Positions 5,726 to 41,087 of a stretch of DNA of 44,797 nt are shown one piece after another. The notes beneath the pieces were generated by a model. That model did not search any database. It saw nothing but the letters and a program-made list of their open reading frames with translations, and was not told the DNA's origin. This DNA is from a virus (taxonomy: Duplodnaviria > Heunggongvirae > Uroviricota > Caudoviricetes). The position numbers and the translations under genes are program-made. The stretch is from the IMG/VR virus record IMGVR_UViG_2568526230_000010. One strand, written 5' to 3'. Each line of letters begins with the position of its first letter. Position 1 is the first letter of the stretch.

Positions 5726-5740
5726 TTACCTTTCAGGTAA
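5726..5740. promoter_or_regulatory. Operator-like palindrome TTACCTTTCAGGTAA (perfect 6-3-6)
   Basis: Perfect inverted repeat in the divergent region between the tailspike and the accessory island; one of 13 family members. Confidence 0.5.
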
Positions 5741-5777
5741 TTTGCAAAACGTGCTGGATAGCAAACAAATTATTTGC

Positions 5778-5797
5778 TACTGTATAAATATACAGTT
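5778..5797. promoter_or_regulatory. LexA (SOS) box TACTGTATAAATATACAGTT
   Basis: CTGT-N8-ACAG with an AT-rich spacer, matching the enterobacterial SOS-box consensus at 19 of 20 positions; 21 nt upstream of the ATG at 5818. Confidence 0.7.
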
Positions 5798-5817
5798 ATT
5801 GCATGGAGAAGATTAAG

Positions 5818-6075
5818 ATGCAGCAGTATCACTATCCACTGGAAGACGGATTTACCGAAAGGATTCACACGCCGGGAGGCGTCAGGTCACTGGTGGAGGG
5901 ATCGCACTTGATGAAATTACTCCGGGATCTCGATAAGGATGGATTTAATGTCGATGGCCCACTTGCCGAACTGACTGCACTGATTAACTACGTCACCAGC
6001 TCACAGATGTCTATGCAGGATCTGCAAACACATCTCGACTATTGTGCCGAACAATTACGAAAACAAACCAGATAA
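5818..6075 (+). CDS. Small protein homologous to the C-terminal domain of the downstream antirepressor-like protein
   Basis: 85 aa; RBS GGAG 9 nt upstream; IHTPGGVRSLVEGSHLMKLL…MQDLQTHLDY aligns with IHSPSGVLGLTENSLLMNLL…LRDIQTHAEY in the 6889..7608 product. Confidence 0.6.
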   Translation: MQQYHYPLEDGFTERIHTPGGVRSLVEGSHLMKLLRDLDKDGFNVDGPLAELTALINYVTSSQMSMQDLQTHLDYCAEQLRKQTR

Positions 6076-6106
6076 GGTTTGAAATTACCAAATGGAGTGC
6101 TTATAT

Positions 6107-6121
6107 TTACCTTTGCGGTAA
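6107..6121. promoter_or_regulatory. Operator-like palindrome TTACCTTTGCGGTAA inside a hairpin
   Basis: Family member with one mismatch, lying in the loop of the inverted repeat GGAGTGC (6094-6100) / GCACTCC (6131-6137) just after the small-gene stop. Confidence 0.4.
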
Positions 6122-6147
6122 ATTTACATCGCACTCCTCTTGTGCCA

Positions 6148-6240
6148 TAGTAATCGGGCACTGGCAAAATCCAGTGCCGGGATTGGCGTCCCGGATTACT
6201 AGTAGGCGCATACCACGCCAGACGTGGTTTTTTTATGCGT
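6148..6240 (+). ncRNA. Candidate structured small RNA: tRNA-like three-way junction plus intrinsic terminator
   Basis: 8-bp closing stem TAGTAATC/GATTACTA encloses hairpins GGCACTGG-CAAAAT-CCAGTGCC and GGGA-TTGGCG-TCCC, followed by terminator ACCACG-CCAGA-CGTGGT plus T7; no credible ORF on either strand. Confidence 0.4.
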
Positions 6241-6389
6241 ATAGCACAGTCATATCCGAATTATGGTGGGCTGGGCAGGGGCACCGAAAGGTGCGCCGGT
6301 ACCTACTAGGCCGGTACGCCAACCTTGTCCAGTTCACCACCAGCAATTGGCGTTGCGGTGGTGGGTAACTTACTAGTAGAGGTATCGCT

Positions 6390-6896
6390 ATGCCAGGCCA
6401 AAAAATCTCAAACGACGATCTGTATTGGTTAATTTCTAATTCTCCACTCCTTCTTATGCTAAGGCAAGAAAGTGCACCACTGGTCAGTGAATTGATTAGC
6501 TGTAGAAATAGAATGTGGGATGAAGGGGCAGATTTAGATACCAATTTGTTTGATCATCTTATGCAACTAGCAGTCGATAACAAGGCAAAACTACGCTCTG
6601 AATACAACGCTTATCCAGAAATAGCAAAATACCTTAACGCTGAAATACTTGGTGGACCAGGTCAACCAGACCTAAAAACAAAAGATGGTTACCCTGTTGA
6701 GGTGAAGGTAGATACTTTTTCTCCTTCAGCATTAAAACAATTATTAAGGTATATGGATGCTTCTGGCGCAGATTTTGGTTTTGCTTGTGCAAAAACTCTT
6801 TCTGTAAAACTCCCTGAAAACATAAAGTTCATCCAGTTAGATTATAAAGATAATTGCTATTTCGTCGTGAAAGATGGAGGCAATGAAAATGCGTAA
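6390..6896 (+). CDS. Hypothetical protein, AT-rich accessory gene coupled to the antirepressor-like gene
   Basis: 168 aa; RBS GAGGT 5 nt upstream; lower GC than flanking phage genes; its end overlaps the start of the next gene. Confidence 0.55.
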   Translation: MPGQKISNDDLYWLISNSPLLLMLRQESAPLVSELISCRNRMWDEGADLDTNLFDHLMQLAVDNKAKLRSEYNAYPEIAKYLNAEILGGPGQPDLKTKDGYPVEVKVDTFSPSALKQLLRYMDASGADFGFACAKTLSVKLPENIKFIQLDYKDNCYFVVKDGGNENA

Positions 6897-7608
6897 TATA
6901 GCTATTGATAAGTTGCCGATAACAACTCATTGCAACATCCCTGTAATGACTACAGAAATGCTTGCTGATTTGTATGACACAGAACCCAAACTGATTCGTC
7001 AAAACTATCAACGAAATGCAGATCGATTCATTGAGGGAAAACATTGTTTCAAGCTGATAGGCGAAGAATTACGAGCATTTAAGAACGAGTCCTCTCAAAG
7101 AGGTTTGCTTAATATTGCACCAAAAGTAAGTCATCTTTTCTTATGGACCGCTCGCGGTGCAGCACGACATGCGAAAATTCTTGAGACTGAAAAAGCGTGG
7201 GAGGTCTTCGAAAAACTGGAAGATTGCTACTTCGACAGAAAACCCGCAAATGTCAGTGGAGATGTTCGTCTCTCAGGTGGAGCTGATTTATCAAAGGCCA
7301 CTCAGGTAATTGAAAAATTCATGCCCGCCATTATGGAGGCGATCAAGCTGGAAGACAAAAAAGAATACAGTGCCCCACTGAAGCCCGGCTACCGCAGCCT
7401 GATTCATTCTCCGTCTGGTGTTCTCGGCCTGACGGAGAACTCACTGCTGATGAATCTGCTGAACCAGTTACAGGAAGACGGGCACGACGTATCGGGCGCG
7501 GCGGCGGAGCTGACCACCATGTTCTGCTACATCGTCGGTGTGAGCAAATGCCTGCGTGATATCCAGACCCACGCGGAGTACATCAACGACAAGGCAGGGT
7601 TCTTCTGA
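6889..7608 (+). CDS. Antirepressor-like protein with N-terminal ORF6N-type DNA-binding domain
   Basis: N-terminus fits the ORF6N pattern (VMTTEMLADLYDTEPKLIRQNYQRNADRFIEGKHCFKLIGEEL); C-terminal domain is a paralog of the 5818..6075 product. Start placed at the ATG 8 nt after GGAGG; the ORF track starts at 6874. Confidence 0.65.
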   Translation: MRNIAIDKLPITTHCNIPVMTTEMLADLYDTEPKLIRQNYQRNADRFIEGKHCFKLIGEELRAFKNESSQRGLLNIAPKVSHLFLWTARGAARHAKILETEKAWEVFEKLEDCYFDRKPANVSGDVRLSGGADLSKATQVIEKFMPAIMEAIKLEDKKEYSAPLKPGYRSLIHSPSGVLGLTENSLLMNLLNQLQEDGHDVSGAAAELTTMFCYIVGVSKCLRDIQTHAEYINDKAGFF

Positions 7609-7680
7609 CGGGCGGCGGCACATGGATGTGCCTTTAAATAATTCTGTACAGATTGCAGACTGTGGGTGAATAGCGTACTA

Positions 7681-7695
7681 TTACCTCAAGGGTAA
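7681..7695. promoter_or_regulatory. Operator-like palindrome TTACCTCAAGGGTAA
   Basis: Family member with one mismatch, between the antirepressor-like stop and the toxin module; followed by hairpin ACGGATT/AATCCGT. Confidence 0.4.
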
Positions 7696-7755
7696 ACGGA
7701 TTGGTTTCATTTTTATTAATCCGTGTAATGAACTTATGAGATATGAGGTAATGTC

Positions 7756-7935
7756 ATGCGAAACGAAAAATTGCAGATGCGTAGAGCGCAAGCTGCCGCA
7801 AGACGTTCTTTCAATGGAAGCGTAGAGTACGTAAAAGTTACTATGACAAAAGATCACGCAAGTCGCGTATCCCGCGCTTTCTTTGATTCTCGTAACAATA
7901 AGGAAAATTATGAGTTCGTCTGCGTCGCAGAATGA
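7756..7935 (+). CDS. Small basic protein, candidate antitoxin or regulator partner of the YafO-like toxin
   Basis: 59 aa, below the ORF-track cutoff; RBS GAGGT 6 nt upstream; Arg/Lys-rich; its 3' end overlaps the toxin start by 26 nt. No Phd/YefM/YafN-like signature recognised. Confidence 0.35.
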   Translation: MRNEKLQMRRAQAAARRSFNGSVEYVKVTMTKDHASRVSRAFFDSRNNKENYEFVCVAE

Positions 7936-8455
7936 TAAAAATCAAATTGTCAGATATAAGGGTCGAGTGTTGCATACGCAAAATTTCTCGGCCCTTTGTG
8001 CATCTGATCTTGAGCTGAAGAAAGTATCTGATGCCTTTACCCAGTATTGGAAAACGGGATACCATCCATCTCTTGGTAAAGATGCTGCATTTGCTCGTCC
8101 GACAGAAATGCTTAAACTAAATGTCAGGCATACTCATGTCGATAACCAAGACTATATTCCAGAAGATAGTGATAAAAAACACACTGGTAAAAAATCATCT
8201 TGGGATGCATGGAAAAATATAGCGTCTGTACAAGTAAAATGCATACCAACAAGTGATTGCTTTTTAGTTTATTCGGTAAATCACAATCGTGATGCGCTGG
8301 TTATGTTTTTTGTTGACGCAGATGCTCACAACATAACTGAGCAAGAAGAGTTTAAAGAGGAAGCAATCACTATCAGTTATCAATTCTTTGAGAAAACAAA
8401 AACAGAACCAATGCCTTTAGAAGAAGATCTTTTTTCTGATAAATGGAAGGAATAG
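7910..8455 (+). CDS. YafO-family toxin homolog (ribosome-dependent mRNA interferase family) with C-terminal extension
   Basis: Aligns by eye with E. coli YafO as recalled: FTQYWKTGYHPSLGKDAAFARP vs FISYKRDGVLPDIFGRDALYD, LNVRHTHV vs ERVAHIHL, CFLVYSV…ALVMFFV vs AHLVYCQ…AWLLIAI. Start at the ATG with RBS AAGGA; AT-rich; followed by a terminator. Confidence 0.65.
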   Translation: MSSSASQNDKNQIVRYKGRVLHTQNFSALCASDLELKKVSDAFTQYWKTGYHPSLGKDAAFARPTEMLKLNVRHTHVDNQDYIPEDSDKKHTGKKSSWDAWKNIASVQVKCIPTSDCFLVYSVNHNRDALVMFFVDADAHNITEQEEFKEEAITISYQFFEKTKTEPMPLEEDLFSDKWKE

Positions 8456-8475
8456 CCCGCAGCGCGGGCTTTTTT
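8455..8475 (+). terminator. Rho-independent terminator
   Basis: GCCCGC-AGC-GCGGGC followed by T6, at the stop of the toxin gene. Confidence 0.7.
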
Positions 8476-8547
8476 GTGGACGAAACACAAGTCAGTGCTA
8501 CACTCATTGACGCCACATTGAGGTGGCTTATAGATGGAAATTTCACA

Positions 8548-8709
8548 ATGAAAAAAGCATTTGCTGCACTGTTCGTTTTGTTGTCTCTGGTAGCTTCAAC
8601 TCAGGCCTTTGCCGGTCGTTGTCAGCACGACAGCGACACTGCTGCTGACGGCTCCCGCTGCGGTGGGCGTTCTGCGGATTCCCGCCCGGGCGGCGGTGGC
8701 ATTCGTTAA
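8548..8709 (+). CDS. Small exported peptide (signal peptide plus about 31-aa Cys/Gly/Arg-rich mature part)
   Basis: MKKAFAALFVLLSLVASTQAFA signal peptide; possible promoter TTGACG-N16-TATAGA upstream; GC-rich, so real coding is uncertain. Confidence 0.35.
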   Translation: MKKAFAALFVLLSLVASTQAFAGRCQHDSDTAADGSRCGGRSADSRPGGGGIR

Positions 8710-8731
8710 AAACAAGGCCGCGAAAGCGGCC
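8706..8731 (-). terminator. Terminator closing the minus-strand late operon
   Basis: GGCCGC-GAAA-GCGGCC (GNRA loop) followed on the minus strand by TTGTTTTT, 15 nt after the stop of the 8746..9306 gene. Confidence 0.6.
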
Positions 8732-8745
8732 TGTGACATGTCACA

Positions 8746-9306
8746 CTACATTGATATATGATTCATAAAGTAGCTTAAAGATTTACTTCCCAGAAAAGAA
8801 ATTTCTTTTCCTGGATATGTCGCAATAATTGAGCATGACTTATCCCCGTTAGAGGTAACAAATCCTGAATAACCTACTTGTTCTTTACCATTTTGTTGCT
8901 TGGCTAAAAAGTAGAGGTAGCTTATCTTTTTGCCCTCTGGGTAAAACTCTGCCAAACCAGTATCGGTGATTGAATATTTTATTCTCCCGCCTTGAGTAAC
9001 GTTTTCCATCTCAAGTTTAGCTATGTCTTTTCTGTTGTATTCAGCATTGATTTTCCTTTCGAAATCAATGTTGTTTTCAAATGAGTAGGAAGCAACAGTC
9101 TGAATAGATGGGAACACGTTTATCTGGATGCCTCCACAGTCGGCACAGGTATAAAGGTATGAATCAGATGGAATCCCCATAAAAGAAAACTGAGTTACCT
9201 TAAATTTATCGCTATCTCCAAAGTATTGAAGTTCGCATTTAACATTTTGCCCTGCAAAAGAAAATGCAGACATCAATATTGAAACAAAAAATATAATTGC
9301 CTTCAT
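8746..9306 (-). CDS. Exported protein of unknown function, AT-rich moron at the end of the late operon
   Basis: 186 aa; signal peptide MKAIIFFVSILMSAFSFA; markedly lower GC than the upstream ejection-protein gene; start 3 nt after the preceding stop. Confidence 0.6.
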   Translation of the reverse strand: MKAIIFFVSILMSAFSFAGQNVKCELQYFGDSDKFKVTQFSFMGIPSDSYLYTCADCGGIQINVFPSIQTVASYSFENNIDFERKINAEYNRKDIAKLEMENVTQGGRIKYSITDTGLAEFYPEGKKISYLYFLAKQQNGKEQVGYSGFVTSNGDKSCSIIATYPGKEISFLGSKSLSYFMNHISM

Positions 9307-9308
9307 TA

Positions 9309-11861
9309 TTATTTACCTAGCATGAACTGCGATGGTGGGATCAGAAAGTCGTTCCCCTGCTCACGCTCAACACGGCGCTGATAACGCTCAAGAGAGCCTG
9401 GGTCAAGGGCATCTTGTATCCGGTTCAATATTAAACCATTCATCGCCGTACGAAGCCAGAACACGTTGAGGAATGGCGTATTGTCAAGTGCCGTGCGATA
9501 CCAGTCACCCAAATCTGCATCCCCTCTCGTGGTCTGCTGGAGCAGCGTGATAATGCTGTCAGCGTTCGATGCTGCTGGCCCCATTAGCGACGTAACCGGC
9601 CCGGCCCCCATGCGGTTGACCTCACCAAACATGAAGTCACCCAAGATGCCAAGACCGCCCCCCTGAGATGCGGCTGCGAGAAACGTCTTGGCATCTGCCG
9701 GGCGTGGTGTTTGCCCTTTCAGCATGAGTTTTGACTGCATGGAGATATAACCAAACATAGTCGCCCAGACAAAGAGGTTTGCAGCACCAAGGAAAGCCCC
9801 CTTCCCGTTACGTAGCAGCGCATTCGTCAGCGATCCGGTTTTCGACTCACCAAGCCCAGCAGGAATATAACCACGCCCGAATACTTCGCGTCCTAGTACG
9901 TTCTGCATGAAGCTTGCAGTGAACGATTTGTACTGACCAGCGAATCGTATTGCTTCCCCAGCCACCGTTCCTGGCACCGTGCCCATCTTCATAAACGCCT
10001 GCGTGCGATCGCCAGGCTCTGACATGGCGATATTCAGGCGGTCAAGGATGTAGCCGCGCAACTGCCCTTCCAATTGATCGCGTGCGTCAGCGATAGCGCG
10101 CTGCGTTGGTTTGATCCCCTTACTCTCTACATAACCGGCAATCACTTCGTCAGGCACGCCGCGGATGCCGCTGGTCGTCATGAACTTACGACCTTCGCTA
10201 TCGGCCATGTCCATGTTGCGAAAAATTTCCCACTCACGTTCGCCAATACCGTGCAGATCCAGCACGCGTCGCAGGTCTTCCGGTAGCCGCGCATGAGACT
10301 GGTCAGCATTCTTTGCAAGCCAGTTGGTTATCATCATGGCGTTGCTGTTGCGACCGCTCTCGGTCCAGAAGTTCATGAGGTTGTACTTAAAGAAAAGCTG
10401 CTGCGCGCGACCAAGCTTTCCATTCAGCGTGTCATCACCAGATATGCGCCGGATGATTTCCTGCGTCATGGAGTCGGAATAAACTCCGATAGAGGAAAGG
10501 ATCTCTTTCTGCTCCGCGCTGTTGTAACGCGTGAAGCGGCCTCTCATAGCACCAAGCAACGCCTGCATAAAATTCTGCCCTTGGTAGCGCATCTCGGTAG
10601 CGGCGATAGGCACGTCGTTAAACGATGAGATTACCGCGCCACCAAGTTGGCTCATACGCAACCAGCCGCGTACAGCCGCCGACGCATTGGCCCAGCCTAC
10701 GCTGCCAGGAATATTTAGCGAGCCGTCAACCTGCGGCATTACGGTACGGTTAATGCGACGCACCTTCGTCATGTAGTCAGCCAACGCTGCCGGTCTTCCG
10801 GATTTGCTGATATCTTCAGCAATGGCGTCCGTCAGGTACTTAAACATGTTCTGTGGGTTAGTGCCCAGTACGCGCATCATGCCCGTTGTGCGGGCAGCGC
10901 TGTTTAAGCCACCAAACAGCGCTTCTCGCAGGCTGCCGGTGCCGAATTGCTGGTTGTACTCGTGCCACGAGATACCATCTTTGAAGTGCAAAATTCGCTC
11001 TTGGCTGGCGCGTTTAGCTGCGTTCGCCGATCCCTTAAAGCCATTCATCCAATCGGGCTTTTCAGATGTAAGATGCACGCCGGAAGCCAGCCCGTTATAA
11101 ATGTTACGCATGAACTGCTCGCGGTCAGCCACGCCGTCAAAAGTGCGCTCATCAAGGCGCGGGAGAATAGCATTTCGCCATGCTTCATAACCTGCGGCGC
11201 GGATCTTCATGATGTCGTGTGACTGGCGCACTATATAGCCCGGCTCTTTGCGTATCCATGCCCCGGCGCGGTTCTCATCAATGCGCGCAGTTTCCTGCCA
11301 TTTCATGATGATTTGTGCAGCGCTTACGGATTGCTTTGTCATACCGTCAGTTGACTGCCCGCGCCCTATGCGCCACATTGCATCGGCAATTTCCCGGTCA
11401 TTGCTGCCGCTGGCGATGAATTGCACCAGCCCGGCACGGTCAAAATCGTAGTTGATACCGGAATGATACTTGCCGCGCAGTTGCGCCACCTCCGAAGATA
11501 CCGACCGGCGGGCGCCGGTACGCGCATCGTTGCGGCCAACCAGCATTGCTTCAAGCCCGATATCCGGGCGGTCTTTCCAGATAGTACGAAGCTCTCTAAG
11601 TCGTTGTGCGGCAATACGGGCGTTGATTGCCTTATTGCGAGCCTCAATCTGTTTTGCCAGCATATCGGCATTGCTCAGTTCTTCCGCTGCGCGCATCGCG
11701 GCCTCTTCCAGAGACAGCGCCTCATTGGTCGCCAGAATTCGCCTAGTGGTGTCGTTCATGTCACGCACCAGCGACTCCATCTCATCGGAAGAAAGCTCGC
11801 GACCAGCGGCAGCATTTACACTGCGCTCGCACTGCGTCAAAAATTCGTTTGCTGCCATCAC
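9309..11861 (-). CDS. Large internal virion/ejection protein
   Basis: 850 aa; start overlaps the upstream stop by 4 nt; part of the coupled block of large proteins typical of podovirus ejection proteins. Confidence 0.6.
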   Translation of the reverse strand: MMAANEFLTQCERSVNAAAGRELSSDEMESLVRDMNDTTRRILATNEALSLEEAAMRAAEELSNADMLAKQIEARNKAINARIAAQRLRELRTIWKDRPDIGLEAMLVGRNDARTGARRSVSSEVAQLRGKYHSGINYDFDRAGLVQFIASGSNDREIADAMWRIGRGQSTDGMTKQSVSAAQIIMKWQETARIDENRAGAWIRKEPGYIVRQSHDIMKIRAAGYEAWRNAILPRLDERTFDGVADREQFMRNIYNGLASGVHLTSEKPDWMNGFKGSANAAKRASQERILHFKDGISWHEYNQQFGTGSLREALFGGLNSAARTTGMMRVLGTNPQNMFKYLTDAIAEDISKSGRPAALADYMTKVRRINRTVMPQVDGSLNIPGSVGWANASAAVRGWLRMSQLGGAVISSFNDVPIAATEMRYQGQNFMQALLGAMRGRFTRYNSAEQKEILSSIGVYSDSMTQEIIRRISGDDTLNGKLGRAQQLFFKYNLMNFWTESGRNSNAMMITNWLAKNADQSHARLPEDLRRVLDLHGIGEREWEIFRNMDMADSEGRKFMTTSGIRGVPDEVIAGYVESKGIKPTQRAIADARDQLEGQLRGYILDRLNIAMSEPGDRTQAFMKMGTVPGTVAGEAIRFAGQYKSFTASFMQNVLGREVFGRGYIPAGLGESKTGSLTNALLRNGKGAFLGAANLFVWATMFGYISMQSKLMLKGQTPRPADAKTFLAAASQGGGLGILGDFMFGEVNRMGAGPVTSLMGPAASNADSIITLLQQTTRGDADLGDWYRTALDNTPFLNVFWLRTAMNGLILNRIQDALDPGSLERYQRRVEREQGNDFLIPPSQFMLGK

Positions 11862-19658: not shown

Positions 19659-20263
19659 CAGGACAACCTCGCAATGGTAAACTCGTCAACCGGTGGCAGT
19701 GGTTCCTGTGATTCATTCTGGCTATGCGAGCCAGCACTAAGAATCACGCGATTGTACATATTGAGGGCAAACGTACCGAGGTCTGCATTCCCAGTCAGCG
19801 CCATGTTAATAGCTGCCGCAAGACGCCAGGCCAACGCCTCCATAAAAATGGCATCAAACATGTTCACATCTGAAACGCGAGATACATACTTGAGCCATGC
19901 CTGCGGCTGGTCTGTGTAGATCAACTTTCCTGTTCCGTTGGTGTCTGCACCAACTTCGTACTGAACGCGCATTGCTGCTGTTGGATTGCGTACACCAGGA
20001 AGCATAATTTCAGTAATGCGCAGACAATCGGACGGGTACTGGTACGCATATTCCCAGTCAGGCGGTGGATTGCTCGTATCTGCAAGCGCCACGCGTTTGG
20101 TAGCAAAGTTCCAGTCAAAATCAGAAAGCACAGCATCACGGCAGGCCTCAAAGTGCAGCGAACATTCCCCCGCTTCCTTGCTGGCTTCCGTCAGGCTGTT
20201 AATACTGCGGCTGTTGCCAATATTGGACAGCGCACGATTGCAGATCTCTACTACAGAGGCCAT
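19658..20263 (-). CDS. Tail tubular/adaptor protein A-like
   Basis: 201 aa; immediately upstream of the nozzle-like gene with 1-nt overlap; size matches gp11-type adaptors. Confidence 0.5.
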   Translation of the reverse strand: MASVVEICNRALSNIGNSRSINSLTEASKEAGECSLHFEACRDAVLSDFDWNFATKRVALADTSNPPPDWEYAYQYPSDCLRITEIMLPGVRNPTAAMRVQYEVGADTNGTGKLIYTDQPQAWLKYVSRVSDVNMFDAIFMEALAWRLAAAINMALTGNADLGTFALNMYNRVILSAGSHSQNESQEPLPPVDEFTIARLS

Positions 20264-20319: not shown

Positions 20320-20664
20320 TTACACGCCCAGTTCTTTACGCTTATCTGCGATCTTCTCGCGTAGCGTTTCGGCTTTGGCGTTATGGTGTGGCTTCTCGTT
20401 AAAGAGCAATTCGTACTCTTCACGGAGCTTATCCAGTTCACCATCATCTGACACATCGTTGATGATTTTGGTGCTGGTTGCTGCCATTGACACCTTTCCT
20501 GCAACTTTTGCTTTTGCCTGTCTGGCTGCATCGTTAACAGGTTCCAGTGCGCTACCAGGCTCACCTTCGTATTCGATTTCTGCCCCCTCCGGCCACAGAG
20601 TGTTATGGATATGAGAGAGGCGCAAAACGCGGTATCTTGGTTTCTCACCTGACATCGATATCAC
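20320..20664 (-). CDS. Hypothetical head-tail region protein
   Basis: 114 aa ORF in the operon orientation between capsid-associated and tail genes. Confidence 0.45.
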   Translation of the reverse strand: MISMSGEKPRYRVLRLSHIHNTLWPEGAEIEYEGEPGSALEPVNDAARQAKAKVAGKVSMAATSTKIINDVSDDGELDKLREEYELLFNEKPHHNAKAETLREKIADKRKELGV

Positions 20665-25047: not shown

Positions 25048-25137
25048 ATCAATGACTCCGTACGCAATTAAATTATTACCAATTTAACCACATATGTTTT
25101 ATTTATCGTAGAAGGTTGACATTTAACGCGCTAATTA

Positions 25138-25152
25138 TTACCCTTCAGGTAA
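25138..25152. promoter_or_regulatory. Operator-like palindrome TTACCCTTCAGGTAA next to a TTGACA -35 element
   Basis: Family member with one mismatch; TTGACA at 25116-25121 lies 16 bp upstream, in the divergent region between the portal operon and the tRNA. Confidence 0.4.
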
Positions 25153-25474: not shown

Positions 25475-25551
25475 GTGGCATTAGCTCAGTTGGACAGAGC
25501 AACCGCCTTCTAAGCGGTTGGTCGCAGGTTCGAATCCTGCATGCCACGCCA
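25475..25551 (+). tRNA. tRNA-Arg (anticodon UCU), phage-encoded
   Basis: Cloverleaf folded by hand: acceptor GTGGCAT/ATGCCAC, D-stem GCTC/GAGC, anticodon stem ACCGC/GCGGT with loop CTTCTAA, T-arm GCAGG-TTCGAAT-CCTGC, discriminator G and encoded CCA. Acceptor stem differs from host argU as recalled. Confidence 0.85.
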
Positions 25552-27672: not shown

Positions 27673-28265
27673 TGATTACCATCCTGACGTTCTTTGAGTC
27701 GCTTCCTGGCTGCTGCTATGCGATCAGCAATTGTCACATTCACATTAACATCCAGGCGTTCTTTGAACGCATTGACGTCGACGTGCTTACCAATCAGTTC
27801 GAGGTTCTTCACCTTGTCAGGCCATTTAATTTTTTTGAGGATTGTCTCTATCGAATCCTCGTTCATGTTCATGATGGTCGATGACAGATCAAAGCCGCTA
27901 AGCGTAGTGCGCCAGATTTTCGGCCACTCGCGGATTGGCTTAAGGCTCCCATCGTCGTTGAGGATGTCGATCACGTCCATCTGGTCGATCTCCACCAGGC
28001 GCATGAGAACGTAATCAGCACTGACGCGCATTCGTTTGTTGCGCTCCTCCATCAACTCGGCAATCCGTTTTTGAATGCGTTCATCGCGCATCATGACACT
28101 GGCTTTAACTGCCGCTGTATTTGGGGAGAATCCTGCGTTAATCGCTGCCTGAGTCTGGTTTTCAGGCGTTTTGATGTATGACTGGCAATAAGCCTCCTGC
28201 ATTGCTGTTAGTGGCTTAAATTGCGTTGATTTGCGTTTATAGGCTTTAGGTTCAGCAGGCATCAT
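27669..28265 (-). CDS. Terminase small subunit
   Basis: Terminase_2-like N-terminus (LTAMQEAYCQSYIKTPENQTQAAINAGFS). The ORF track extends to a TTG at 28343 through a repeat-containing leader; the start is placed at the first ATG pair. Confidence 0.7.
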   Translation of the reverse strand: MMPAEPKAYKRKSTQFKPLTAMQEAYCQSYIKTPENQTQAAINAGFSPNTAAVKASVMMRDERIQKRIAELMEERNKRMRVSADYVLMRLVEIDQMDVIDILNDDGSLKPIREWPKIWRTTLSGFDLSSTIMNMNEDSIETILKKIKWPDKVKNLELIGKHVDVNAFKERLDVNVNVTIADRIAAARKRLKERQDGNQ

Positions 28266-28383
28266 AACCACCGTGGTAATAGTTACCGTTGTGGTAATAG
28301 TATCATGCAAAATAAAGCCGCCATAGTTGGCGGCAGTATTCAAACCCCATCAAATTCATCATGCATAATCTACTCGTGACATG

Positions 28384-28725
28384 TCACACTATTAATTTCG
28401 TTTCATGCCAGCCTTTAGTCACCCAGCATTGCGAGTCACCATCACACGGGCATGAATTCACAGGAACTCTCTCGCCGCACTTACCGCAACGTTTTCTGCT
28501 GATCGATTTTATACGCCCGTGCACGCGTGCATCATCCTGGCGGATCAGTAACGCTATATACTCACCAAATTCGTAAGGCGCACGCCCGGGGCGACGCGTG
28601 GCACAGTTACGCTCCAGCATTTCAATTTCCTGAGCATCAAGCACAATTTCCAGCTTACGCACACCAGATGCAGCTTGTCTGGCTCTCTGAGCGGCTTTGC
28701 GCTCTGCTGCTGATTTAGCCATCAA
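28384..28725 (-). CDS. Hypothetical protein with C-terminal zinc ribbon, upstream of terminase
   Basis: 113 aa; basic helical N-terminus; C-terminal CGKCG…CPC cysteine cluster. Confidence 0.5.
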   Translation of the reverse strand: MMAKSAAERKAAQRARQAASGVRKLEIVLDAQEIEMLERNCATRRPGRAPYEFGEYIALLIRQDDARVHGRIKSISRKRCGKCGERVPVNSCPCDGDSQCWVTKGWHETKLIV

Positions 28726-32447: not shown

Positions 32448-32792
32448 TCAGAACTCTTCGATGTTCCAGCCGCCACCTGCTTTCTTTGGTTTAACCGTTA
32501 CCCCGATGATTCGGAACGGATACTGATCTGCGGCTACTTTGGTTTTCACTCTGGCGTCGTCGGTCCAGAAACCTTTCACTTCGTGCAGTTCCATCTCTCC
32601 GGTGGCGAGCATCACAGCGAAATCGGGCGTATAGAACGTGTTGTCAGCTAACCGCAGCTTAATACCCTCGAATCGATACCAGGCGATTTCCCCTGCACGT
32701 TTACGCTGCTCAAGGTGCTGGCAATACGCAGATTCTGTTTTGTTCATCTGGCCTGTTTTGAGTCGACCAAGAGCCTGTATCTGTTTTCTCAT
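32448..32792 (-). CDS. DUF1064-like phage protein
   Basis: 114 aa; pattern NKTESAYCQHLE…YTPDFAV…HEVKG resembles DUF1064; RBS GAGGT. Confidence 0.55.
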   Translation of the reverse strand: MRKQIQALGRLKTGQMNKTESAYCQHLEQRKRAGEIAWYRFEGIKLRLADNTFYTPDFAVMLATGEMELHEVKGFWTDDARVKTKVAADQYPFRIIGVTVKPKKAGGGWNIEEF

Positions 32793-32795: not shown

Positions 32796-32872
32796 TTACC
32801 TCTAAGGTAATTAAAAACCACATAAGACACGAAATCAATAGATCTTAGAATATTTTGTTACCTTATAGGTAA
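32796..32872. promoter_or_regulatory. Pair of perfect operator-like palindromes, 62 bp apart
   Basis: TTACCTCTAAGGTAA (32796-32810) and TTACCTTATAGGTAA (32858-32872) in the gap between the P-like and DUF1064-like genes; the first overlaps the DUF1064 RBS. Confidence 0.5.
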
Positions 32873-34681: not shown

Positions 34682-34759
34682 TTTTTCCGCCCCTTTTTGT
34701 TATTGATATTGGCTATTTTGCACAATTGGAAAATTTGATCAACCAGATTTGGTTTTTTA

Positions 34760-34774
34760 TTACCTTTGAGGTAC
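34760..34774. promoter_or_regulatory. Operator-like palindrome TTACCTTTGAGGTAC
   Basis: Family member with one mismatch, in the leader between the Cro-like and zinc-finger genes. Confidence 0.35.
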
Positions 34775-34829: not shown

Positions 34830-35060
34830 TCATGAGTAGAAGAAGTATGCCAGTTCTGCTTTTGAGCGCAGCCATTGTCTTGTTTTACAGGCTTTAAAAA
34901 GCCCATTCATCAATACTTTACCTGGCATTTTGCGCTTACCTGTTAAGTGAGTCTGGATATAGTGACTCGTCGTTCCGGCTTCCTGTGCGAAGGCTTCACG
35001 CTCATCCGGAGTAAGTGCAAGCCAGTGCTTTTTGAAATCGAAATGTCCGTTATCGCTCAT
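34830..35060 (-). CDS. Cro-like small DNA-binding regulator
   Basis: 76 aa, basic, transcribed divergently from the repressor-like gene across an operator-rich 154-bp region. Confidence 0.6.
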   Translation of the reverse strand: MSDNGHFDFKKHWLALTPDEREAFAQEAGTTSHYIQTHLTGKRKMPGKVLMNGLFKACKTRQWLRSKAELAYFFYS

Positions 35061-35096
35061 AGCTATTGCCTGATATTTATTTCAGATAATAAATAT

Positions 35097-35159
35097 TCAC
35101 CCATAAGGTAACAAAAATCAAGGATAGTTACCCATGAGGTGCATTTACCTGTTGGGTAA
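35097..35159. promoter_or_regulatory. Switch-region operator cluster (three TTACCT-N3-AGGTAA-like sites)
   Basis: TCACCCATAAGGTAA (35097-35111), TTACCCATGAGGTGC (35128-35142) and TTACCTGTTGGGTAA (35145-35159) between the divergent Cro-like and repressor-like starts. Confidence 0.5.
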
Positions 35160-35214
35160 TATTGCTTTAAATTGAATCATCTACTGATTCATATATGAGG
35201 CGATTTTCCAGAAA

Positions 35215-35799
35215 ATGAAAAGTATCCAGGACGTCCGCAGGCAAAATCTCAACGACTTGATCGACCGTGAATTCAATGGTGTTCAGACGCGGATGGCAGA
35301 AAAACTTGGAACTCAGGCAAATCTGGTAAACCGCTGGGCTCTTGGCAAGAAGGTTATCGGCGACCAGGTTGCGCGAAAAATTGAAGCTGCCGCCAATAAA
35401 CCACGTAACTGGCTTGATATCGATCGCTCGCTTTCTCAGGAAGGTTTTCAGCCTGTCGGCCCAAGCGACATTGGTCAGCTGGCGGCTCACAACCTGGAAC
35501 GCTGGATGAGCGAAAGCCGCGACCTTTCAACTCAGGGAAAACTTCACCGCGCATCCGGCGTCGCCCAGGTGACAATCAGCCGCCTGTTAAACAATGAGGT
35601 CAGTGTTTCCATTTCCACCCTGGAGAATGTTGCATCAGCATTCGGGCGTCACGGCTATGAATTACTGATTCACCCGCACGACCCTGCGACCATCAACTAT
35701 GACCGCTCGCGCTACGCATTGTTACCCGAAACCGAGAAAGCAAAGATCGAAAGTTACATTGAATTTGTCATCAACCAGAACGAAAAAAACAAACAATAA
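35215..35799 (+). CDS. Prophage repressor candidate with two HTH (XRE-type) motifs and no S24 peptidase domain
   Basis: 194 aa; HTH-like segments near residues 20-45 and 105-135; no Ala-Gly cleavage site or Ser/Lys peptidase domain seen; own terminator downstream. Confidence 0.6.
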   Translation: MKSIQDVRRQNLNDLIDREFNGVQTRMAEKLGTQANLVNRWALGKKVIGDQVARKIEAAANKPRNWLDIDRSLSQEGFQPVGPSDIGQLAAHNLERWMSESRDLSTQGKLHRASGVAQVTISRLLNNEVSVSISTLENVASAFGRHGYELLIHPHDPATINYDRSRYALLPETEKAKIESYIEFVINQNEKNKQ

Positions 35800-35821
35800 A
35801 ATCATATTTTTCAGTAAGTAA

Positions 35822-35843: not shown

Positions 35844-35856
35844 ATTGCCTATACTA

Positions 35857-35933
35857 TTACCTAATGGGTAATTTTTTTAACTCATATCTATTGACATCAA
35901 ACCAAATACGCATAATTATTACCTCAACGGTAA
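35857..35933. promoter_or_regulatory. Early promoter flanked by two operator-like palindromes
   Basis: TTACCTAATGGGTAA (35857-35871), -35 TTGACA (35891-35896), AT-rich -10 near 35912-35919, then TTACCTCAACGGTAA (35919-35933). Confidence 0.5.
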
Positions 35934-35952
35934 CAGACCGAGGTAACAAGTT

Positions 35953-36105
35953 ATGCAGTGGAAAATCATCAACGGTTGGTACTGCGTTACTGCATGCGGA
36001 TTCATGAGCTGGAAGTTCCGCACCTTACAGGAAGGCATTAAGTGGGCTTTCGTCAGCAAAGAAGCTCGCGATGTGGCCAACGATAACGAGATATGGGAGG
36101 GCTGA
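35953..36105 (+). CDS. Small hypothetical protein, first gene of the plus-strand early operon
   Basis: 50 aa, below the ORF-track cutoff; RBS GAGGTAA; Trp-rich. Confidence 0.35.
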   Translation: MQWKIINGWYCVTACGFMSWKFRTLQEGIKWAFVSKEARDVANDNEIWEG

Positions 36106-36107
36106 TA

Positions 36108-37225: not shown

Positions 37226-38103
37226 GCAATGATATCGCAATCACATCACAACCAGGCGCAACTGTAGGTACTGCTGCGGCAATCTTCAGCCCGGAGGGCA
37301 TGAATCAACTGGTGCGTTTCGCGGAGTTGATGTCACAAAGCAAAGCGACTGTACCGAAACATCTTGAAGGCAAACCTGCCGATTGCCTGGCGGTGACCAT
37401 GCAGGCGGCACAGTGGGGAATGAACCCTTTCGCCGTGGCGCAGAAAACGCATGTGGTAAACGGAACGTTAGGCTACGAAGCACAGTTGGTAAACGCGGTC
37501 GTATCCTCTTCCAGCCTGCTAGCGACACGCCTGAATTATCGCTGGAGCGGTGACTGGTCGAATGTTAACGGCAAAACAGATAAATCACCGAATCTGACGG
37601 TAACTGTGTCAGCAGTTCTTAAAGGAGAAGCAGAACCCCGTGAGCTTACCATCAGTATGGCGCAAGCCGGAGTGCGTAACTCTCCATTGTGGGAACAGGA
37701 TCCGCGCCAGCAGCTTGCCTATCTTTGCACGAAACGATGGGCTCGCCTGCACGCTCCTGATGTGCTTCTCGGTGTTTACACCCCTGACGAATTACAGGAA
37801 ACGGCACCGCGCGTTGAGCGAGACATTACTCCGCAAACGACTACTGCTGCGGGAATGAACAGTCTGATCAACGCTAAACCAGTGAAAAAGCATGATGAGC
37901 AAACGCGTAAAGCGGATAGCCGTGATCCAGAAGAAATGCTGATGGCCTTTACCAGCGCAGCGATGAATTACAGCACCGTCTCCGAACTGGATAAGGCTTA
38001 CAAATACATTGCACAAAAACTTTCAGATGATGACGAACTGCTGGCAAAAGCCACCGACGTTTACAGCGTTCGTCGGGAAGAATTAAACGAAACATCTATG
38101 TAA
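37222..38103 (+). CDS. Single-strand annealing protein (RecT/Red-beta family)
   Basis: Segments LAVTMQAAQWGMNPFA and SPLWEQDPRQQLAYLCTKRWARL parallel conserved Red-beta/RecT regions; coupled to the exonuclease. Confidence 0.7.
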   Translation: MSNDIAITSQPGATVGTAAAIFSPEGMNQLVRFAELMSQSKATVPKHLEGKPADCLAVTMQAAQWGMNPFAVAQKTHVVNGTLGYEAQLVNAVVSSSSLLATRLNYRWSGDWSNVNGKTDKSPNLTVTVSAVLKGEAEPRELTISMAQAGVRNSPLWEQDPRQQLAYLCTKRWARLHAPDVLLGVYTPDELQETAPRVERDITPQTTTAAGMNSLINAKPVKKHDEQTRKADSRDPEEMLMAFTSAAMNYSTVSELDKAYKYIAQKLSDDDELLAKATDVYSVRREELNETSM

Positions 38104-38152
38104 CCACCACCGCGGCGCCACGCGCGCCGCACTGCAACCAAGAGAGGTATTT

Positions 38153-38401
38153 ATGAAAGGTGCATTAGGTAAGAAGGAACTCCTGGCGGTGGTGCCACTG
38201 TCATGGAGCACTATCGACCGTATGGAGCGCGCAGGTGAATTTCCTAAACGCTGGTATATCACTGACAAACGCTGCGCATGGAACCGTGACGAAGTTGAGC
38301 GTTGGCTTGATGAACGTCAGGCAGCAAGCCCGGCAGAGTTCCAGGGTAAAAAACCTCCTGTTCAGCAACGTGTATATCGTCCCGTGAGCAACGCTGCATG
38401 A
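38153..38401 (+). CDS. AlpA-family DNA-binding protein (excisionase-like regulator)
   Basis: 82 aa; LSWSTIDRMERAGEFPKRWYITDKRCAWNRDEVERWL matches the AlpA/Xis-like family. Confidence 0.7.
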   Translation: MKGALGKKELLAVVPLSWSTIDRMERAGEFPKRWYITDKRCAWNRDEVERWLDERQAASPAEFQGKKPPVQQRVYRPVSNAA

Positions 38402-38510
38402 GTGCGCTGCTAAGGCACTGGATCAAATGGTCAGGATGGTACTTATTCCTGGCCTCTGTTTCAGCATGGCTTTATCTGCTGGCATTAATTTTCAGAGAGG
38501 GTTGGATTAA

Positions 38511-38783
38511 GTGAGAAAGTTAAGCCGACTTGAAAAATATCACATGAATAAGGTTTCAATGCGCAGTCCGTCAAAGATTGTCGCCGTTACTCCTGCGGCG
38601 ATAGAGATCGAAAAACGCGCGATTGAAAGAGAGAAAAAGGGCAGTTCCGCATTGCCGCTCACCTTTGGCTTCAGTGTATGGATGTTGCTTCTGGTGATGT
38701 TGAGCGTGCAAGGATCGCGGTTCGCAGGGACCAATGTATCACAAAAGGTAACGGCCTTCGCCGTGGAGACTATAGCGGTATAG
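38511..38783 (+). CDS. Hypothetical small protein with a C-terminal hydrophobic segment
   Basis: 90 aa; basic N-terminus then a hydrophobic stretch (FGFSVWMLLLVMLSV). Confidence 0.4.
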   Translation: MRKLSRLEKYHMNKVSMRSPSKIVAVTPAAIEIEKRAIEREKKGSSALPLTFGFSVWMLLLVMLSVQGSRFAGTNVSQKVTAFAVETIAV

Positions 38784-38801
38784 GATGTTGCGGGGTGGTT
38801 T

Positions 38802-39452
38802 ATGACTAAGAAATACACACTAATCTATGCAGATCCACCCTGGGTATACCGGGACAAAGCCGCAGATGGTAATCGCGGTGCCGGTTTTAAATATCCGGTT
38901 ATGAGTGTGCTGGATATCTGCCGCCTTCCTGTGTGGGATTTGGCCGATGAAAACTGTCTGTTGGCCATGTGGTGGGTGCCAACACAACCACTCGAAGCAC
39001 TAAAAGTTGTTGAAGCCTGGGGATTCCGTCTGATGACGATGAAGGGCTTCACGTGGATAAAATGTGGTAGTCGACAACCAGATAAACTGGTTATGGGTAT
39101 GGGACACATGACTCGCGCCAATAGTGAAGATTGCCTGTTTGCGGTAAAGGGAAAACTACCTACGCGCATTAATGCAGGGATCGTTCAGTCATTTACCGCA
39201 CCGCGGCTTGAGCATTCAAGAAAGCCAGATATCGTTCGTGAAAAACTTGTGCAATTATTAGGCGATGTTTCTCGCATTGAACTGTTCGCCCGCCAGACGT
39301 CTCATGGCTTCGATGTTTGGGGTAATCAGTGCGAAGACCCGGCAGTGCAACTACACCCTGGATACGCGTTGGATATTGGCGGATTAACAAATGCATTCAG
39401 CAATGCTCCGCTGTCACCAACAGACAACCAGGGGCGGGAGCGTGCTGCATGA
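38802..39452 (+). CDS. MT-A70-family DNA N6-adenine methyltransferase (orphan)
   Basis: 216 aa; catalytic DPPW motif in IYADPPWVY; no restriction endonuclease gene adjacent. Confidence 0.75.
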   Translation: MTKKYTLIYADPPWVYRDKAADGNRGAGFKYPVMSVLDICRLPVWDLADENCLLAMWWVPTQPLEALKVVEAWGFRLMTMKGFTWIKCGSRQPDKLVMGMGHMTRANSEDCLFAVKGKLPTRINAGIVQSFTAPRLEHSRKPDIVREKLVQLLGDVSRIELFARQTSHGFDVWGNQCEDPAVQLHPGYALDIGGLTNAFSNAPLSPTDNQGRERAA

Positions 39453-39643
39453 ACAGGGCATCACCAGCAGATTTAAGAAAATGCCTTGAAACTGCAAACA
39501 TGCTTGCACACAGCGGGATCAGGTTTGTTCCAATTCCCGCTGTCACTGATGCTGAATTTGCAACACTGTCAGCAATATTCGAAAACAAAATTGAATCACT
39601 GGCAGCAGAAGCAGAGATGGAAGAAAATCAGCAGAACTATTAA
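39449..39643 (+). CDS. Hypothetical small protein
   Basis: 64 aa; start forms an ATGA overlap with the methyltransferase stop. Confidence 0.45.
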   Translation: MNRASPADLRKCLETANMLAHSGIRFVPIPAVTDAEFATLSAIFENKIESLAAEAEMEENQQNY

Positions 39644-39646
39644 ACG

Positions 39647-40897
39647 TTATTCCCCCGCCATCCACTTCTCAAACTTCGACGGGGAGAACGGAATCAGATC
39701 CGTATGCTCCCCGTCAATCCATGAATCAATCATATCGGCCCACTGCTGCAACATGTAGGCGCGCTGTCTGGCGTATTCCGCTTTGTTATATACGGCGCGC
39801 ACACCTTTCTGCTCATGTGCCAGAGCCTTTTCAATCCAGTCTGAAGGATAACCAGCCTCATGCAACAACGTACTGGCTGTACGGCGCATATCATGTACAG
39901 TGAAGTCCTGAATATGCTCACCATCTTCATTTATTATTTTCACCGTTCTGTCGATCAGAGAGTTCAGCGCGGCATTAGATAATGGCTTCCGGAAATTGTA
40001 ACGACCAGGAACCAGATATTCACTTCCACCAGCGCACATCTGCAACCCGACCAATATATCCTGTGCCTGTTTAGGCAGGTAAATAACGTGCGCCCGGCTT
40101 CCCTTCATGCGGTCTGGAGGAATTGTCCATGTCCATTTTTTAAAATCTATTTCATCCCACGTTGCATTGGTGAATTCGCCCTTACGAACCATAGTGATAA
40201 GCACCAGTTTTAAAGCCATTTTCATAGTGCCCATAGCACCAATGGCATCCAGCGTGCGGAAGAACAGGCCAATTTCTTCTGGTGTCAGTGTTCGCTCTCG
40301 TGGTTTAAATATGGCGATAGACGAAGGTTTAATGTCAGCCGCAGGATTAAACAAACCATGACCACGGTCATTGGCGTGACGGTATACGCTACTGATGATC
40401 TCCCTGGCCTGCACTGCTGTTGCCCGGCCACCGCGTTCGACAATCCGGTCACACAAATCACGAACCATCGATGTGGTAATTTCAGCCATCATTTTATTGC
40501 CAAGAACCGGAAGTATGTCACGGTCGATCACCGCCTGTTTCATTGCGCGGGTACTGTCAGCCAGGATGACGTGTTTCATATAACTGTCGGTATGTACCGC
40601 AAACGTCTCGGCACCACGAATCTTTTTGATACCGTCACGTTTAGCCGCAGCCGGTGACTGGCCTGCTTTAAGCAGCTTCTTTGCAGCAATCAGTTCTTCT
40701 CGCGCTTCTGCCAGGCTGATACCGTCACGCCCATACTGCCCGATTACCAGTGTTTCGCGGCGACCGTTGATACGGTAGTCATAGCGAAACGAGACCGTGC
40801 CTGACGTAAGCACAGCTACATACAGCCCGTCACGATCGGAGACCTTGTACAGTTTGTCCTGCGGCTTGAGGTTTTTTAATTTTGTATCGGTAAGCAC
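39647..40897 (-). CDS. int: Tyrosine integrase (P4-type with N-terminal arm-binding domain)
   Basis: 416 aa; N-terminal DUF4102-like region (LYKVSDRDGLYVAVLTSGTVSFRYDYR) and C-terminal catalytic region with HDMRRT and a conserved Tyr; last gene before the inter-copy junction. Confidence 0.85.
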   Translation of the reverse strand: MLTDTKLKNLKPQDKLYKVSDRDGLYVAVLTSGTVSFRYDYRINGRRETLVIGQYGRDGISLAEAREELIAAKKLLKAGQSPAAAKRDGIKKIRGAETFAVHTDSYMKHVILADSTRAMKQAVIDRDILPVLGNKMMAEITTSMVRDLCDRIVERGGRATAVQAREIISSVYRHANDRGHGLFNPAADIKPSSIAIFKPRERTLTPEEIGLFFRTLDAIGAMGTMKMALKLVLITMVRKGEFTNATWDEIDFKKWTWTIPPDRMKGSRAHVIYLPKQAQDILVGLQMCAGGSEYLVPGRYNFRKPLSNAALNSLIDRTVKIINEDGEHIQDFTVHDMRRTASTLLHEAGYPSDWIEKALAHEQKGVRAVYNKAEYARQRAYMLQQWADMIDSWIDGEHTDLIPFSPSKFEKWMAGE

Positions 40898-41087
40898 AAT
40901 TCACCCGTATAGAAACCATTTTCATGACGGTATGAGAGTATACCTTTAAGGTAATACCGTCACCTGTACCGACGAAAAATATGGTGTAGAGTGAATAGAA
41001 ATGAATACATAAAAACAAAAACCCTCTGTAAAAACAGAGGGTTAAATTAGTATCTGAATAGGAATGAGTTGCTATGAGTTAGCTGTT
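40898..41087. other. attP-type P arm between the integrase and the second prophage copy
   Basis: Unique 190-bp segment carrying a terminator hairpin, an ATACCT-N3-AGGTAA site (40940-40954) and the ATACCGTCACC repeat (40954-40964); identity with the left junction resumes at 41088. Confidence 0.5.
41011..41043 (-). terminator. Terminator hairpin nearly identical to the host-flank terminator
   Basis: Stem AACCCTCTGT/ACAGAGGGTT identical to 1114-1137; loop AAAA instead of AGTA; U-tract only on the minus strand. Confidence 0.55.

Follow-up and report, generated by a model that had tools for sequence, protein, structure and literature searches.

Introduction

The lysogeny repressor Rep of phage SPC32H is built of three domains, which serve for DNA binding (N-terminal), dimerisation (middle) and tetramerisation (C-terminal). 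The Rep tetramer binds palindromic sites with pairs of DNA-binding domains drawn from different dimers, and an antirepressor, itself a tetramer, releases it (PMC9638917, PMC9986798). For phage epsilon15, the RefSeq record NC_004775 carries seven features labelled "protein_bind, repressor, lysogeny", placed upstream of the terminase gene, upstream of gp3, between gp19 (the Ant homologue) and the tail fibre, at the early promoter beside the repressor gene (three) and upstream of the gene after the replication genes. In this study, we examined a stretch of 44,797 nucleotides of DNA from a virus of the Caudoviricetes (IMG/VR record IMGVR_UViG_2568526230_000010; the whole stretch is called the window below) in which a sequence-only reading had listed 13 copies of a 15-bp palindrome and ascribed them to one dimeric helix-turn-helix (HTH) repressor acting on the lysogeny switch and on accessory promoters. 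The SPC32H Rep-Ant switch is said to have been described by Kim & Ryu 2013 in J Virol and by Kim et al. 2016 in PNAS, with PDB entries 5D50 and 5D4Z; Kim & Ryu 2013 reportedly found that Rep is not cleaved on SOS induction and is inactivated by Ant, whose promoter is LexA-controlled.

Fifteen copies of (A)TTACC-N5-GGTAA(T) in the window are very probably operators of the window's own Rep, encoded at 35215..35799. This reading of dispersed operators is supported by the epsilon15 features, by the homology of Rep to the SPC32H repressor and its identity to that of phage ZX5, by the conservation of the sites across diverged phage groups, and by a description of their positions that proved correct. 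The window is a phiV10/epsilon15-type (Uetakevirus) E. coli prophage beside guaA; its DNA is 97-99% identical to the Escherichia phages ZX5, HEMP4, TL-2011b and phiV10, members of a genus of epsilon15-like podoviruses. Since the system is already annotated in epsilon15 and its proteins are structurally characterised, the finding is correct but ordinary and already known, a verdict that rests on the epsilon15 RefSeq features and on secondary papers.

Motif definition, enrichment and placement

Exact matches to the 6-3-6 palindrome TTACCTNNNAGGTAA occur three times in the whole window (5726, 32796 and 32858) against 0.00 expected. With up to two mismatches there are 19 matches against 0.95 expected, and none of 100 shuffles reached 19, so that the claim of a frequency above chance, for which a count against shuffled sequence had been suggested, is borne out. 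All 13 copies of the sequence-only reading, three of them perfect, are present in a pattern search of the window. Twelve of the 13 coordinates were recovered at this tolerance; the remaining one, 35128 (TTACCCATGAGGTGC), has three mismatches to the 6-3-6 pattern and two to the core described below. Despite this degeneracy it appears credible as an operator because it lies 17 bp from 35145, where epsilon15, SPC32H and a Klebsiella phage carry a perfect copy.

The 6-3-6 form itself was not upheld. Among 29 sites of relatives, positions 6 and 10 are variable, whereas 56 of 58 symmetrised cases have A or T as their central base; in the window, too, all ten exact-core copies have an A/T centre, often with A...T flanking. 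The conserved core is thus TTACC-N5-GGTAA (5-5-5) with an A/T centre. Allowing one mismatch, this core has 16 matches in the window against 0.66 expected. Searching with it also brought out a pair at the terminase start (28265-28279 and 28283-28297) that was absent from the earlier list, which raises the total from 13 to 15; judged from sequence and placement, the credible operator family would comprise these 15 members, ten exact and five near-exact and intergenic.

Placement was assessed over one genome length (39,926 bp) with a gene list compiled from open reading frames (ORFs) and annotated relatives, which leaves 7.4% of the DNA non-coding. All ten exact-core sites lie in this small fraction (binomial P = 4.7e-12), in agreement with the statement that the palindromes are always intergenic. 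The proportion falls to 4 of 6 for one-mismatch sites and to 1 of 25 for two-mismatch sites, the single case being 35128. Low-stringency hits at 4082 (repeated at 44008), 5494, 8930, 15925, 29616 and 34936 are within genes and look like chance matches. The sites are two-fold symmetric and their half-site centres are 10 bp apart, a spacing of one helical turn that suits a pair of HTH domains in the classic manner.

Proposed operator map and conservation across the genus

The sites are listed in Table 1 together with the proteins and promoters discussed below. Eight of the 15 lie outside the immunity and early region. The grouping proposed from the sequence was right in its main lines: three sites (35097, 35128 and 35145) cluster in the divergent Cro/repressor region, 35857 and 35919 bracket the early promoter TTGACA-17-AATTAT, and two sites 62 bp apart (32796 and 32858) precede the DUF1064 gene. 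For the single sites, the neighbourhoods given as the LexA-boxed island, the toxin module and the integrase are correct; 25138, which had been placed beside a tRNA unit, precedes the gp3-portal structural operon instead.

Table 1. Coordinates of the proposed Rep operators, the regulatory proteins and the promoters of the window.
Feature	Coordinates	Strand	Description
Proposed operator, perfect ATTACCTTTCAGGTAAT	5726..5740		Divergent tailspike/ant region; 63 bp upstream of ant start, ~40 bp upstream of LexA box
Proposed operator	6107..6121		Begins on last T of the -10 of a strong sigma-70-like promoter (isrK-like/C4-like RNAs and ORF6N/Bro-N antirepressor operon)
Proposed operator	7681..7695		61 bp upstream of 59-amino-acid ORF and YafO-like toxin module (7756..8455)
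Proposed operator	25138..25152		Upstream of gp3 and portal/head operon (- strand); promoter-proximal half runs into TAATAA -10-like element
Proposed operator, one mismatch	28265..28279		Abuts terminase small-subunit start codon
Proposed operator, exact core	28283..28297		18 bp upstream of 28265 site; just downstream of intrinsic terminator
Proposed proximal operator, DUF1064 pair	32796..32810		Starts on last T of -10 TTTAAT; ends 3 nt before ATG; right half is the Shine-Dalgarno sequence
Proposed distal operator, DUF1064 pair	32858..32872		62 bp from 32796; just downstream of terminator
Proposed weak operator (GTACC left half)	34760..34774		Downstream of the terminator of the cro-like gene, ahead of replication genes
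Proposed operator	35097..35111		In core of leftward cro-like promoter; imperfect in every genome aligned
Proposed middle operator, rep/cro-like region	35128..35142		Degenerate here (GGTGC), perfect in epsilon15 group
Proposed operator nearest rep	35145..35159		Exact core in all six genomes; followed by conserved TAATAT
Proposed distal operator, rightward early promoter	35857..35871		Centred at ~ -62
Proposed proximal operator, rightward early promoter	35919..35933		Starts on last T of -10; centred at ~ +1
Operator-like site	40940..40954		43 bp upstream of integrase start; one half always GGTAT; least certain assignment
Rep, lysogeny repressor, proposed binder	35215..35799	+	N-terminal Cro/CI-type HTH; C-terminal dimerisation/tetramerisation domains
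Ant, small antirepressor	5803..6075	+	Matches PDB 5D50_E, E = 4.4e-47
LexA box, perfect CTGTATAAATATACAG	5780..5795		Precedes ant; conserved in alignment
Cro-like small HTH protein (epsilon15 gp39 homologue)	34830..35060	-	PHROG 35 "transcriptional repressor", E = 5.6e-13
Early rightward promoter TTGACA-17-AATTAT	35891..35919	+	10/12 consensus matches; -35 invariant in six genomes
Promoter TTGATT-17-TTTAAT before DUF1064	32810..32838	-	Same geometry as early promoter; blocks conserved across alignment
Promoter TTGAAA-17-TATATT of isrK/C4-antirepressor operon	6079..6107	+	10/12 consensus matches
Candidate promoter TTGTTA-17-TATTAT of cro-like gene	35086..35114	-	35097 operator in core

All seven annotated epsilon15 features coincide base for base with TTACC-N5-GGTAA matches, and six of them have a syntenic site in the window: epsilon15 12-27 corresponds to 28283, 2931-2947 to 25138, 19895-19911 to 5726, 32554-32570 to 35919, 32616-32632 to 35857 and 35906-35922 to 32858. 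The third copy at the epsilon15 early promoter (32479-32494) is represented in the window by a half-site only. Equivalents of the second terminase-start site, 28265, are found at 30-44 in epsilon15, 85-99 in Tyrion and 105-119 in phiV10, and phiV10 has an identical copy of the 6107 site at 20497. The epsilon15 genome paper (Kropinski et al. 2007, Virology 369:234) reportedly gives the 17-bp consensus ATTACCWDWWNGGTAAT; a full-text search for that string found nothing.

Conservation in related prophages, which had been named as a check, is evident at two levels. First, the motif is enriched to a comparable degree in each of five relatives, with 15 matches in epsilon15 (0.50 expected), 15 in Tyrion (0.75), 14 in phiV10 (0.65), 18 in SPC32H (0.67) and 13 in Klebsiella phage BUCT711 (0.36). 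Second, syntenic operators are kept when orthologous regulatory regions from six genomes are aligned. The 5726 operator is present in all six. Before gp3, the 25138 operator forms the border between unalignable upstream DNA and an invariant leader, and at the 34760 site all six genomes combine an unchanged right half, GGTAAT, with a degenerate left half. The rep/cro-like region retains the three operators and a few short blocks. At the early promoter, the phiV10 and epsilon15 groups have in common nothing but the distal operator, the TTGACA of the -35, and the -10 with the proximal operator joined to it; before DUF1064 or RuvC, the order terminator, operator, -35, -10 plus operator, start codon is the same whichever gene follows. 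Operators and -35/-10 hexamers are among the few regulatory blocks conserved between these two diverged groups.

Presence and absence of individual sites follow the gene order. A lysis-cassette site occurs only in phages that have a conversion gene on the opposite strand between the tail fibre and the lysis cassette; the tail-fibre and lysis gene groups of the window are contiguous, and the window lacks that site. Operators track the starts of transcription units. When the search was widened to species-level relatives of Rep, all six informative prophages carried the motif and pairs spaced 61-63 bp apart. Five distant homologues of the Rep N-terminal domain (from Paraburkholderia, Hydrogenovibrio and Thiomicrospira; 35-40% identical, NLVNRW kept) had no exact motif within 4 kb, and the motif therefore goes only with full-length Rep of the Uetakevirus type. 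No phage with a changed operator was found in the IMG/VR and species-level Rep scans.

Rep as the proposed binder

The protein encoded at 35215..35799 matches SPC32H Rep (PDB 5D50_A, E = 4e-42) and is 100% identical to the repressors of ZX5 and phiV10. Pfam assigned only HTH families to it, with an HTH_3 hit falling in its C-terminal half, and found no S24 peptidase domain; it matched entries of PHROGs as well. The same sequence is 100% identical among at least 80 IMG/VR contigs, which suggests that this immunity type is very widespread and strongly conserved. Across five phages the overall identity of Rep falls to as little as 43% although the N-terminal domain is highly conserved, and the stretch NLVNRW, predicted to sit at the recognition-helix position of Cro/CI-type HTH domains, is invariant. 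An invariant N-terminal domain with an invariant NLVNRW fits an operator that is unchanged across the genus.

Free phage disappeared when the ZX5 repressor was overexpressed, and the transcripts for holin and endolysin fell by 99.97-99.99% (PMC9782041); these data bear on the Rep of the window because the two proteins are identical. The proposal of a single repressor acting on the switch and on accessory promoters agrees with this picture, whereas its description as a dimer does not, the homologous Rep being reported as tetrameric (PMC9638917, PMC9986798).

Promoters, operator pairs and neighbouring elements

Three near-consensus sigma-70 promoters, those at operators 35919, 6107 and 32796, share one arrangement in which the last T of the -10 is also the first T of TTACC. 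At the early recombination promoter and the DUF1064 promoter, this operator has a partner exactly 62 bp upstream; as 62 bp corresponds to about six helical turns, both members of a pair lie on one face of the DNA. Among 163 close operator pairs at 86 related loci, 157 are spaced at 62 bp and the other six at 61 or 63 bp. Most of these loci are near-identical, but the spacing recurs in the five reference phages and in six relatives at the species level. The remaining two operators of the rep/cro-like region stand 31 and 48 bp from the 35097 operator. A promoter for rep could not be placed with confidence, since the conserved TAATAT after 35145 has no -35.

Operator arms and -10 elements meet elsewhere too. 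An isolated, fully conserved ATTACC half-site (5677-5682) abuts a TAGAAT -10-like element (5667-5672) on the tailspike strand, and similar GGTAATA(A/T)T junctions are seen at 35155-35163 and 25136-25144. Taken together, the three junctions indicate that overlap of an operator arm with a -10 hexamer recurs.

Two further palindromic elements lie close to the operators. A perfect 6-5-6 palindrome, GAATCATCTACTGATTC, occupies 35176-35192, after the last operator and ahead of the rep start codon; Tyrion keeps it roughly, and the epsilon15 group does not have it. The other is a palindrome-like motif, AACCA-N4-TGGTT (or CATATnTGGTT), at 34741-34754, 5686-5699, 6066-6079 and 25086-25099, that is, 19-52 bp from four Rep operators. 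It occurs eight times against 1.5 expected, and the CATATnTGGTT form 13 times against 3.0. Where it follows the cro terminator, and likewise in the gp3 leader and the tailspike/ant region, it falls within blocks that do not vary across the six genomes. The cro-like protein and the PHROG-536 regulator are candidates for its binder.

Evidence against the Rep reading and alternative explanations

Several observations weigh against the assignment of all 15 sites to Rep. The link between the protein and the sites draws on database annotation, homology and position, and so has the standing of a prediction. The three sites of the epsilon15 rep/cro region carry no repressor label in its record. Most late-gene sites had no recognisable sigma-70-like -35 in a stricter promoter scan, which leaves promoter occlusion unproven at those sites, and in generic scans promoter-like hits in the operator regions were not enriched over shuffles; the promoter evidence concerns three or four consensus-like promoters. 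The site before the integrase is the most doubtful member. It shows the same mismatch in 6/6 aligned genomes, its equivalent in epsilon15 is annotated with RNase III/integrase sites and not as a repressor site, and it is nested in a longer inverted repeat, GACGGTAT...ATACCGTC (40925-40965, - strand), that is conserved in six genomes. This nested site may regulate int separately from Rep.

The cro-like protein adds to these points, as it may act as a further binder of these sites or of sites close by. It is as well conserved as Rep: within the genus its sequences are 58-84% identical and keep an HTH-like stretch, AGTTSHYIQ, without change, which would also explain an unchanged motif. PHROG annotates it as a transcriptional repressor, and CI and Cro are known to share operators in lambdoid phages. 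Still, we regard it as unlikely that this protein is the main binder, or that it shares the sites with Rep as in lambda and occupies the dispersed copies. The epsilon15 annotators gave the sites to the repressor, and silencing of late, antirepressor and accessory units in a lysogen needs Rep, which is present when Cro is not. Furthermore, the recognition helices predicted for Rep and for the cro-like protein show no sequence relationship, and AACCA-N4-TGGTT beside several operators offers the cro-like protein a free candidate site of its own.

Another possibility is that the copies outside the immunity region belong to a different regulator, either the PHROG-536 protein (28384..28725) or a host factor, and merely resemble the immunity operators. 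The late-gene copies lack a good -35, like activator-dependent promoters, and a regulator gene stands immediately upstream of the terminase-start pair. On the other hand, the invariant arms, their spacing and the A/T centre do not differ between late, accessory and immunity copies, the copies overlap -10/+1 and are not placed upstream of the -35, and four of the epsilon15 "repressor" features are themselves dispersed copies, all of which makes this explanation highly improbable.

That the palindromes act in RNA, as hairpins masking ribosome-binding sites, as terminators or as processing sites, is scarcely credible. The overlap of some copies with ribosome-binding sites, remarked in the sequence-only reading, is real: with its AGGT, the right half also serves as the Shine-Dalgarno sequence at 32796 and 28265, and separate GAGGTAA Shine-Dalgarno sequences at 35940 and 7746 can pair in silico with the left arm of an operator. 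The int-proximal copy lies in the longer repeat that the epsilon15 annotators marked as an RNase III site, and the 7670-7760 region folds with z = -3.0 through long-range pairing. The hairpin masking proposed along with the overlap found no support, however: in folding of five sites and the int-proximal repeat, the 6-bp A/U-rich stems are weak and fold with z of only -1.1 to -1.5 against shuffles (-1.1 in the int region). The arms show no compensatory changes and are invariant in dozens of copies and six genomes, the mark of a sequence read by a protein. At the defined promoters transcription is predicted to begin within the operator, so that the left arm would be untranscribed; sites upstream of -35 elements are never transcribed, and most copies have no T-run after them. 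An RNA hairpin or terminator repeat was accordingly rejected for the family as a whole, given arms without covariation and folds that are not significant except at 7670-7760. The real terminators nearby are separate G+C-rich hairpins.

Proposed mechanism and significance

If the sites are Rep operators, each palindrome would be occupied by a pair of N-terminal HTH domains of Rep. By homology with SPC32H, a Rep tetramer would carry two such pairs and could hold two operators simultaneously, engaging those that are 17-18 bp or 62 bp apart. With operators at the start of nearly every transcription unit, the prophage would be silenced directly, unit by unit, and not only through the early cascade. 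At the clear promoters, where an operator lies on the -10/+1, bound Rep would exclude RNA polymerase; at the late-gene sites, Rep may either target a promoter that needs an activator or stand as a roadblock against read-through. Induction would proceed as in SPC32H: DNA damage takes LexA off its box, and Ant binds Rep and strips it from the DNA.

More tentatively, the 62-bp promoter-operator module, which occurs twice per genome, might allow one Rep tetramer to clamp both sides of the core promoter in a very small loop, with an immunity specificity that holds genus-wide; we think this possible but rather doubtful. Were it true, a single immunity specificity would be common to a genus whose hosts include Salmonella, Escherichia, Klebsiella, Enterobacter, Citrobacter and Erwinia.

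The outcome is an operator map of 15 sites for a very common type of E. coli prophage. As read here, it would mean that the lineage silences each transcription unit directly, two different antirepressor modules included. The increments over existing knowledge are the 15-site map itself, the 5-5-5 motif, the terminase-start pair, the 62-bp promoter-operator module and the operators before two antirepressor modules; no new kind of system is revealed. The map is useful for annotation, for the prediction of cross-immunity among epsilon15-like phages and for work on the Rep tetramer.

Gene neighbourhood of the window

Bases 1-1150 of the window are E. coli yfgH and yfgI, and phage DNA begins at ~1150. 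A 3.7-kb segment with the lysis genes and part of the tailspike (1150-4871) recurs letter for letter at 41076-44797, just behind the integrase and the attP core (41087-41103, - strand). The exact repeat points to two tandem prophage copies, or an equivalent join, in the source; in a genome whose left junction is identical, only one copy lies beside guaA.

Downstream of the LexA-controlled Ant lies a P1 immI-like module (6079-7608) composed of a strong promoter with a Rep operator, an isrK-like RNA, a C4 RNA, a 168-amino-acid ORF and an antirepressor-like gene. Rfam identified the isrK-like RNA at 6158-6234 (68 bits) and the C4 antisense RNA at 6259-6344 (77 bits); both (6158-6344) are directly downstream of the 6107 operator and upstream of the gene for the ORF6N/Bro-N antirepressor-like protein (6874..7608). 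The 168-amino-acid ORF is without known function. This module is a second antirepressor system beside Ant. Directly downstream of the 7681 operator, the region 7756-8455 holds a 59-amino-acid ORF and a YafO-toxin-like ORF (Pfam YafO_toxin, E = 9e-6), apparently a toxin-antitoxin-like accessory module placed under the control of Rep. Between the terminase region and that of gp3, and oriented against the structural genes, is a tRNA-Arg(TCT) gene (25475-25551); the tRNA-Arg of SPC32H occupies the same place. The gene for the PHROG-536 "transcriptional regulator" (28384..28725) stands just upstream of the terminase genes.

Comparison with known systems

Systems in which one repressor acts at many places on a phage genome are known outside the genus as well. 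Phage P1 also has one repressor, C1, with operators genome-wide, including one on the promoter of a c4-antirepressor operon (Op51 of immI, c4-icd-ant), as at 6107 in the window; unlike the symmetric window sites, those of P1 are 17-mers without symmetry, and the protein that binds them is unrelated. The stoperators of mycobacteriophage L5 gp71 resemble the window sites in being many repressor sites in short intergenic gaps that silence most of the prophage directly. They are, however, asymmetric 13-mers that belong to an unrelated protein, depend on orientation and act on elongation inside transcribed DNA, whereas the window sites are palindromic and stand at promoters and 5′ ends. Asymmetric operators of the P1 C1 or L5 gp71 type were rejected on account of the two-fold symmetry of the window sites.

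Like the CI-Cro systems of lambda and P22, the window has a repressor gene and a cro-like gene that diverge from a region with three operators, palindromic sites of the kind bound by HTH proteins, and a further operator set at a leftward-early-type promoter. It differs in a repressor without S24, in operators at late, integrase and accessory genes, in induction by an antirepressor, and in pairs that bracket promoters at 62 bp where lambda and P22 have tandem arrays. A lambda-type CI system was rejected, as Pfam found no Peptidase_S24 and 8/15 sites lie beyond the immunity/early region.

The closest match is within the genus. SPC32H has homologues of both Rep and Ant, a LexA box before ant, a Rep without the S24 autocleavage domain, and its 18 motif copies in the same places; the window Rep is 43% identical to that of SPC32H, and the window has the second, P1 immI-like antirepressor module. 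Epsilon15 has the identical palindrome, TTACC-N5-GGTAA, and the same neighbouring genes for Rep and the cro-like protein, and syntenic sites are found at the terminase start, in the gp3 leader, in the tailspike/ant region, as the early promoter pair and as the pair before RuvC/DUF1064. Differences are that seven features are annotated in epsilon15 against 15 motif matches there, that the window adds sites before the isrK/C4-antirepressor operon and the YafO-like module and lacks the lysis-cassette site, and that the window Rep is only 43% identical overall. The palindrome, the synteny of its copies, a Rep gene divergent from a cro-like gene with three operators between, and a LexA-controlled Ant are all present in the window, as in other Uetakevirus Rep systems. 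On every one of these in silico features, the operator set is best assigned to the epsilon15/SPC32H-type Rep-Ant switch.

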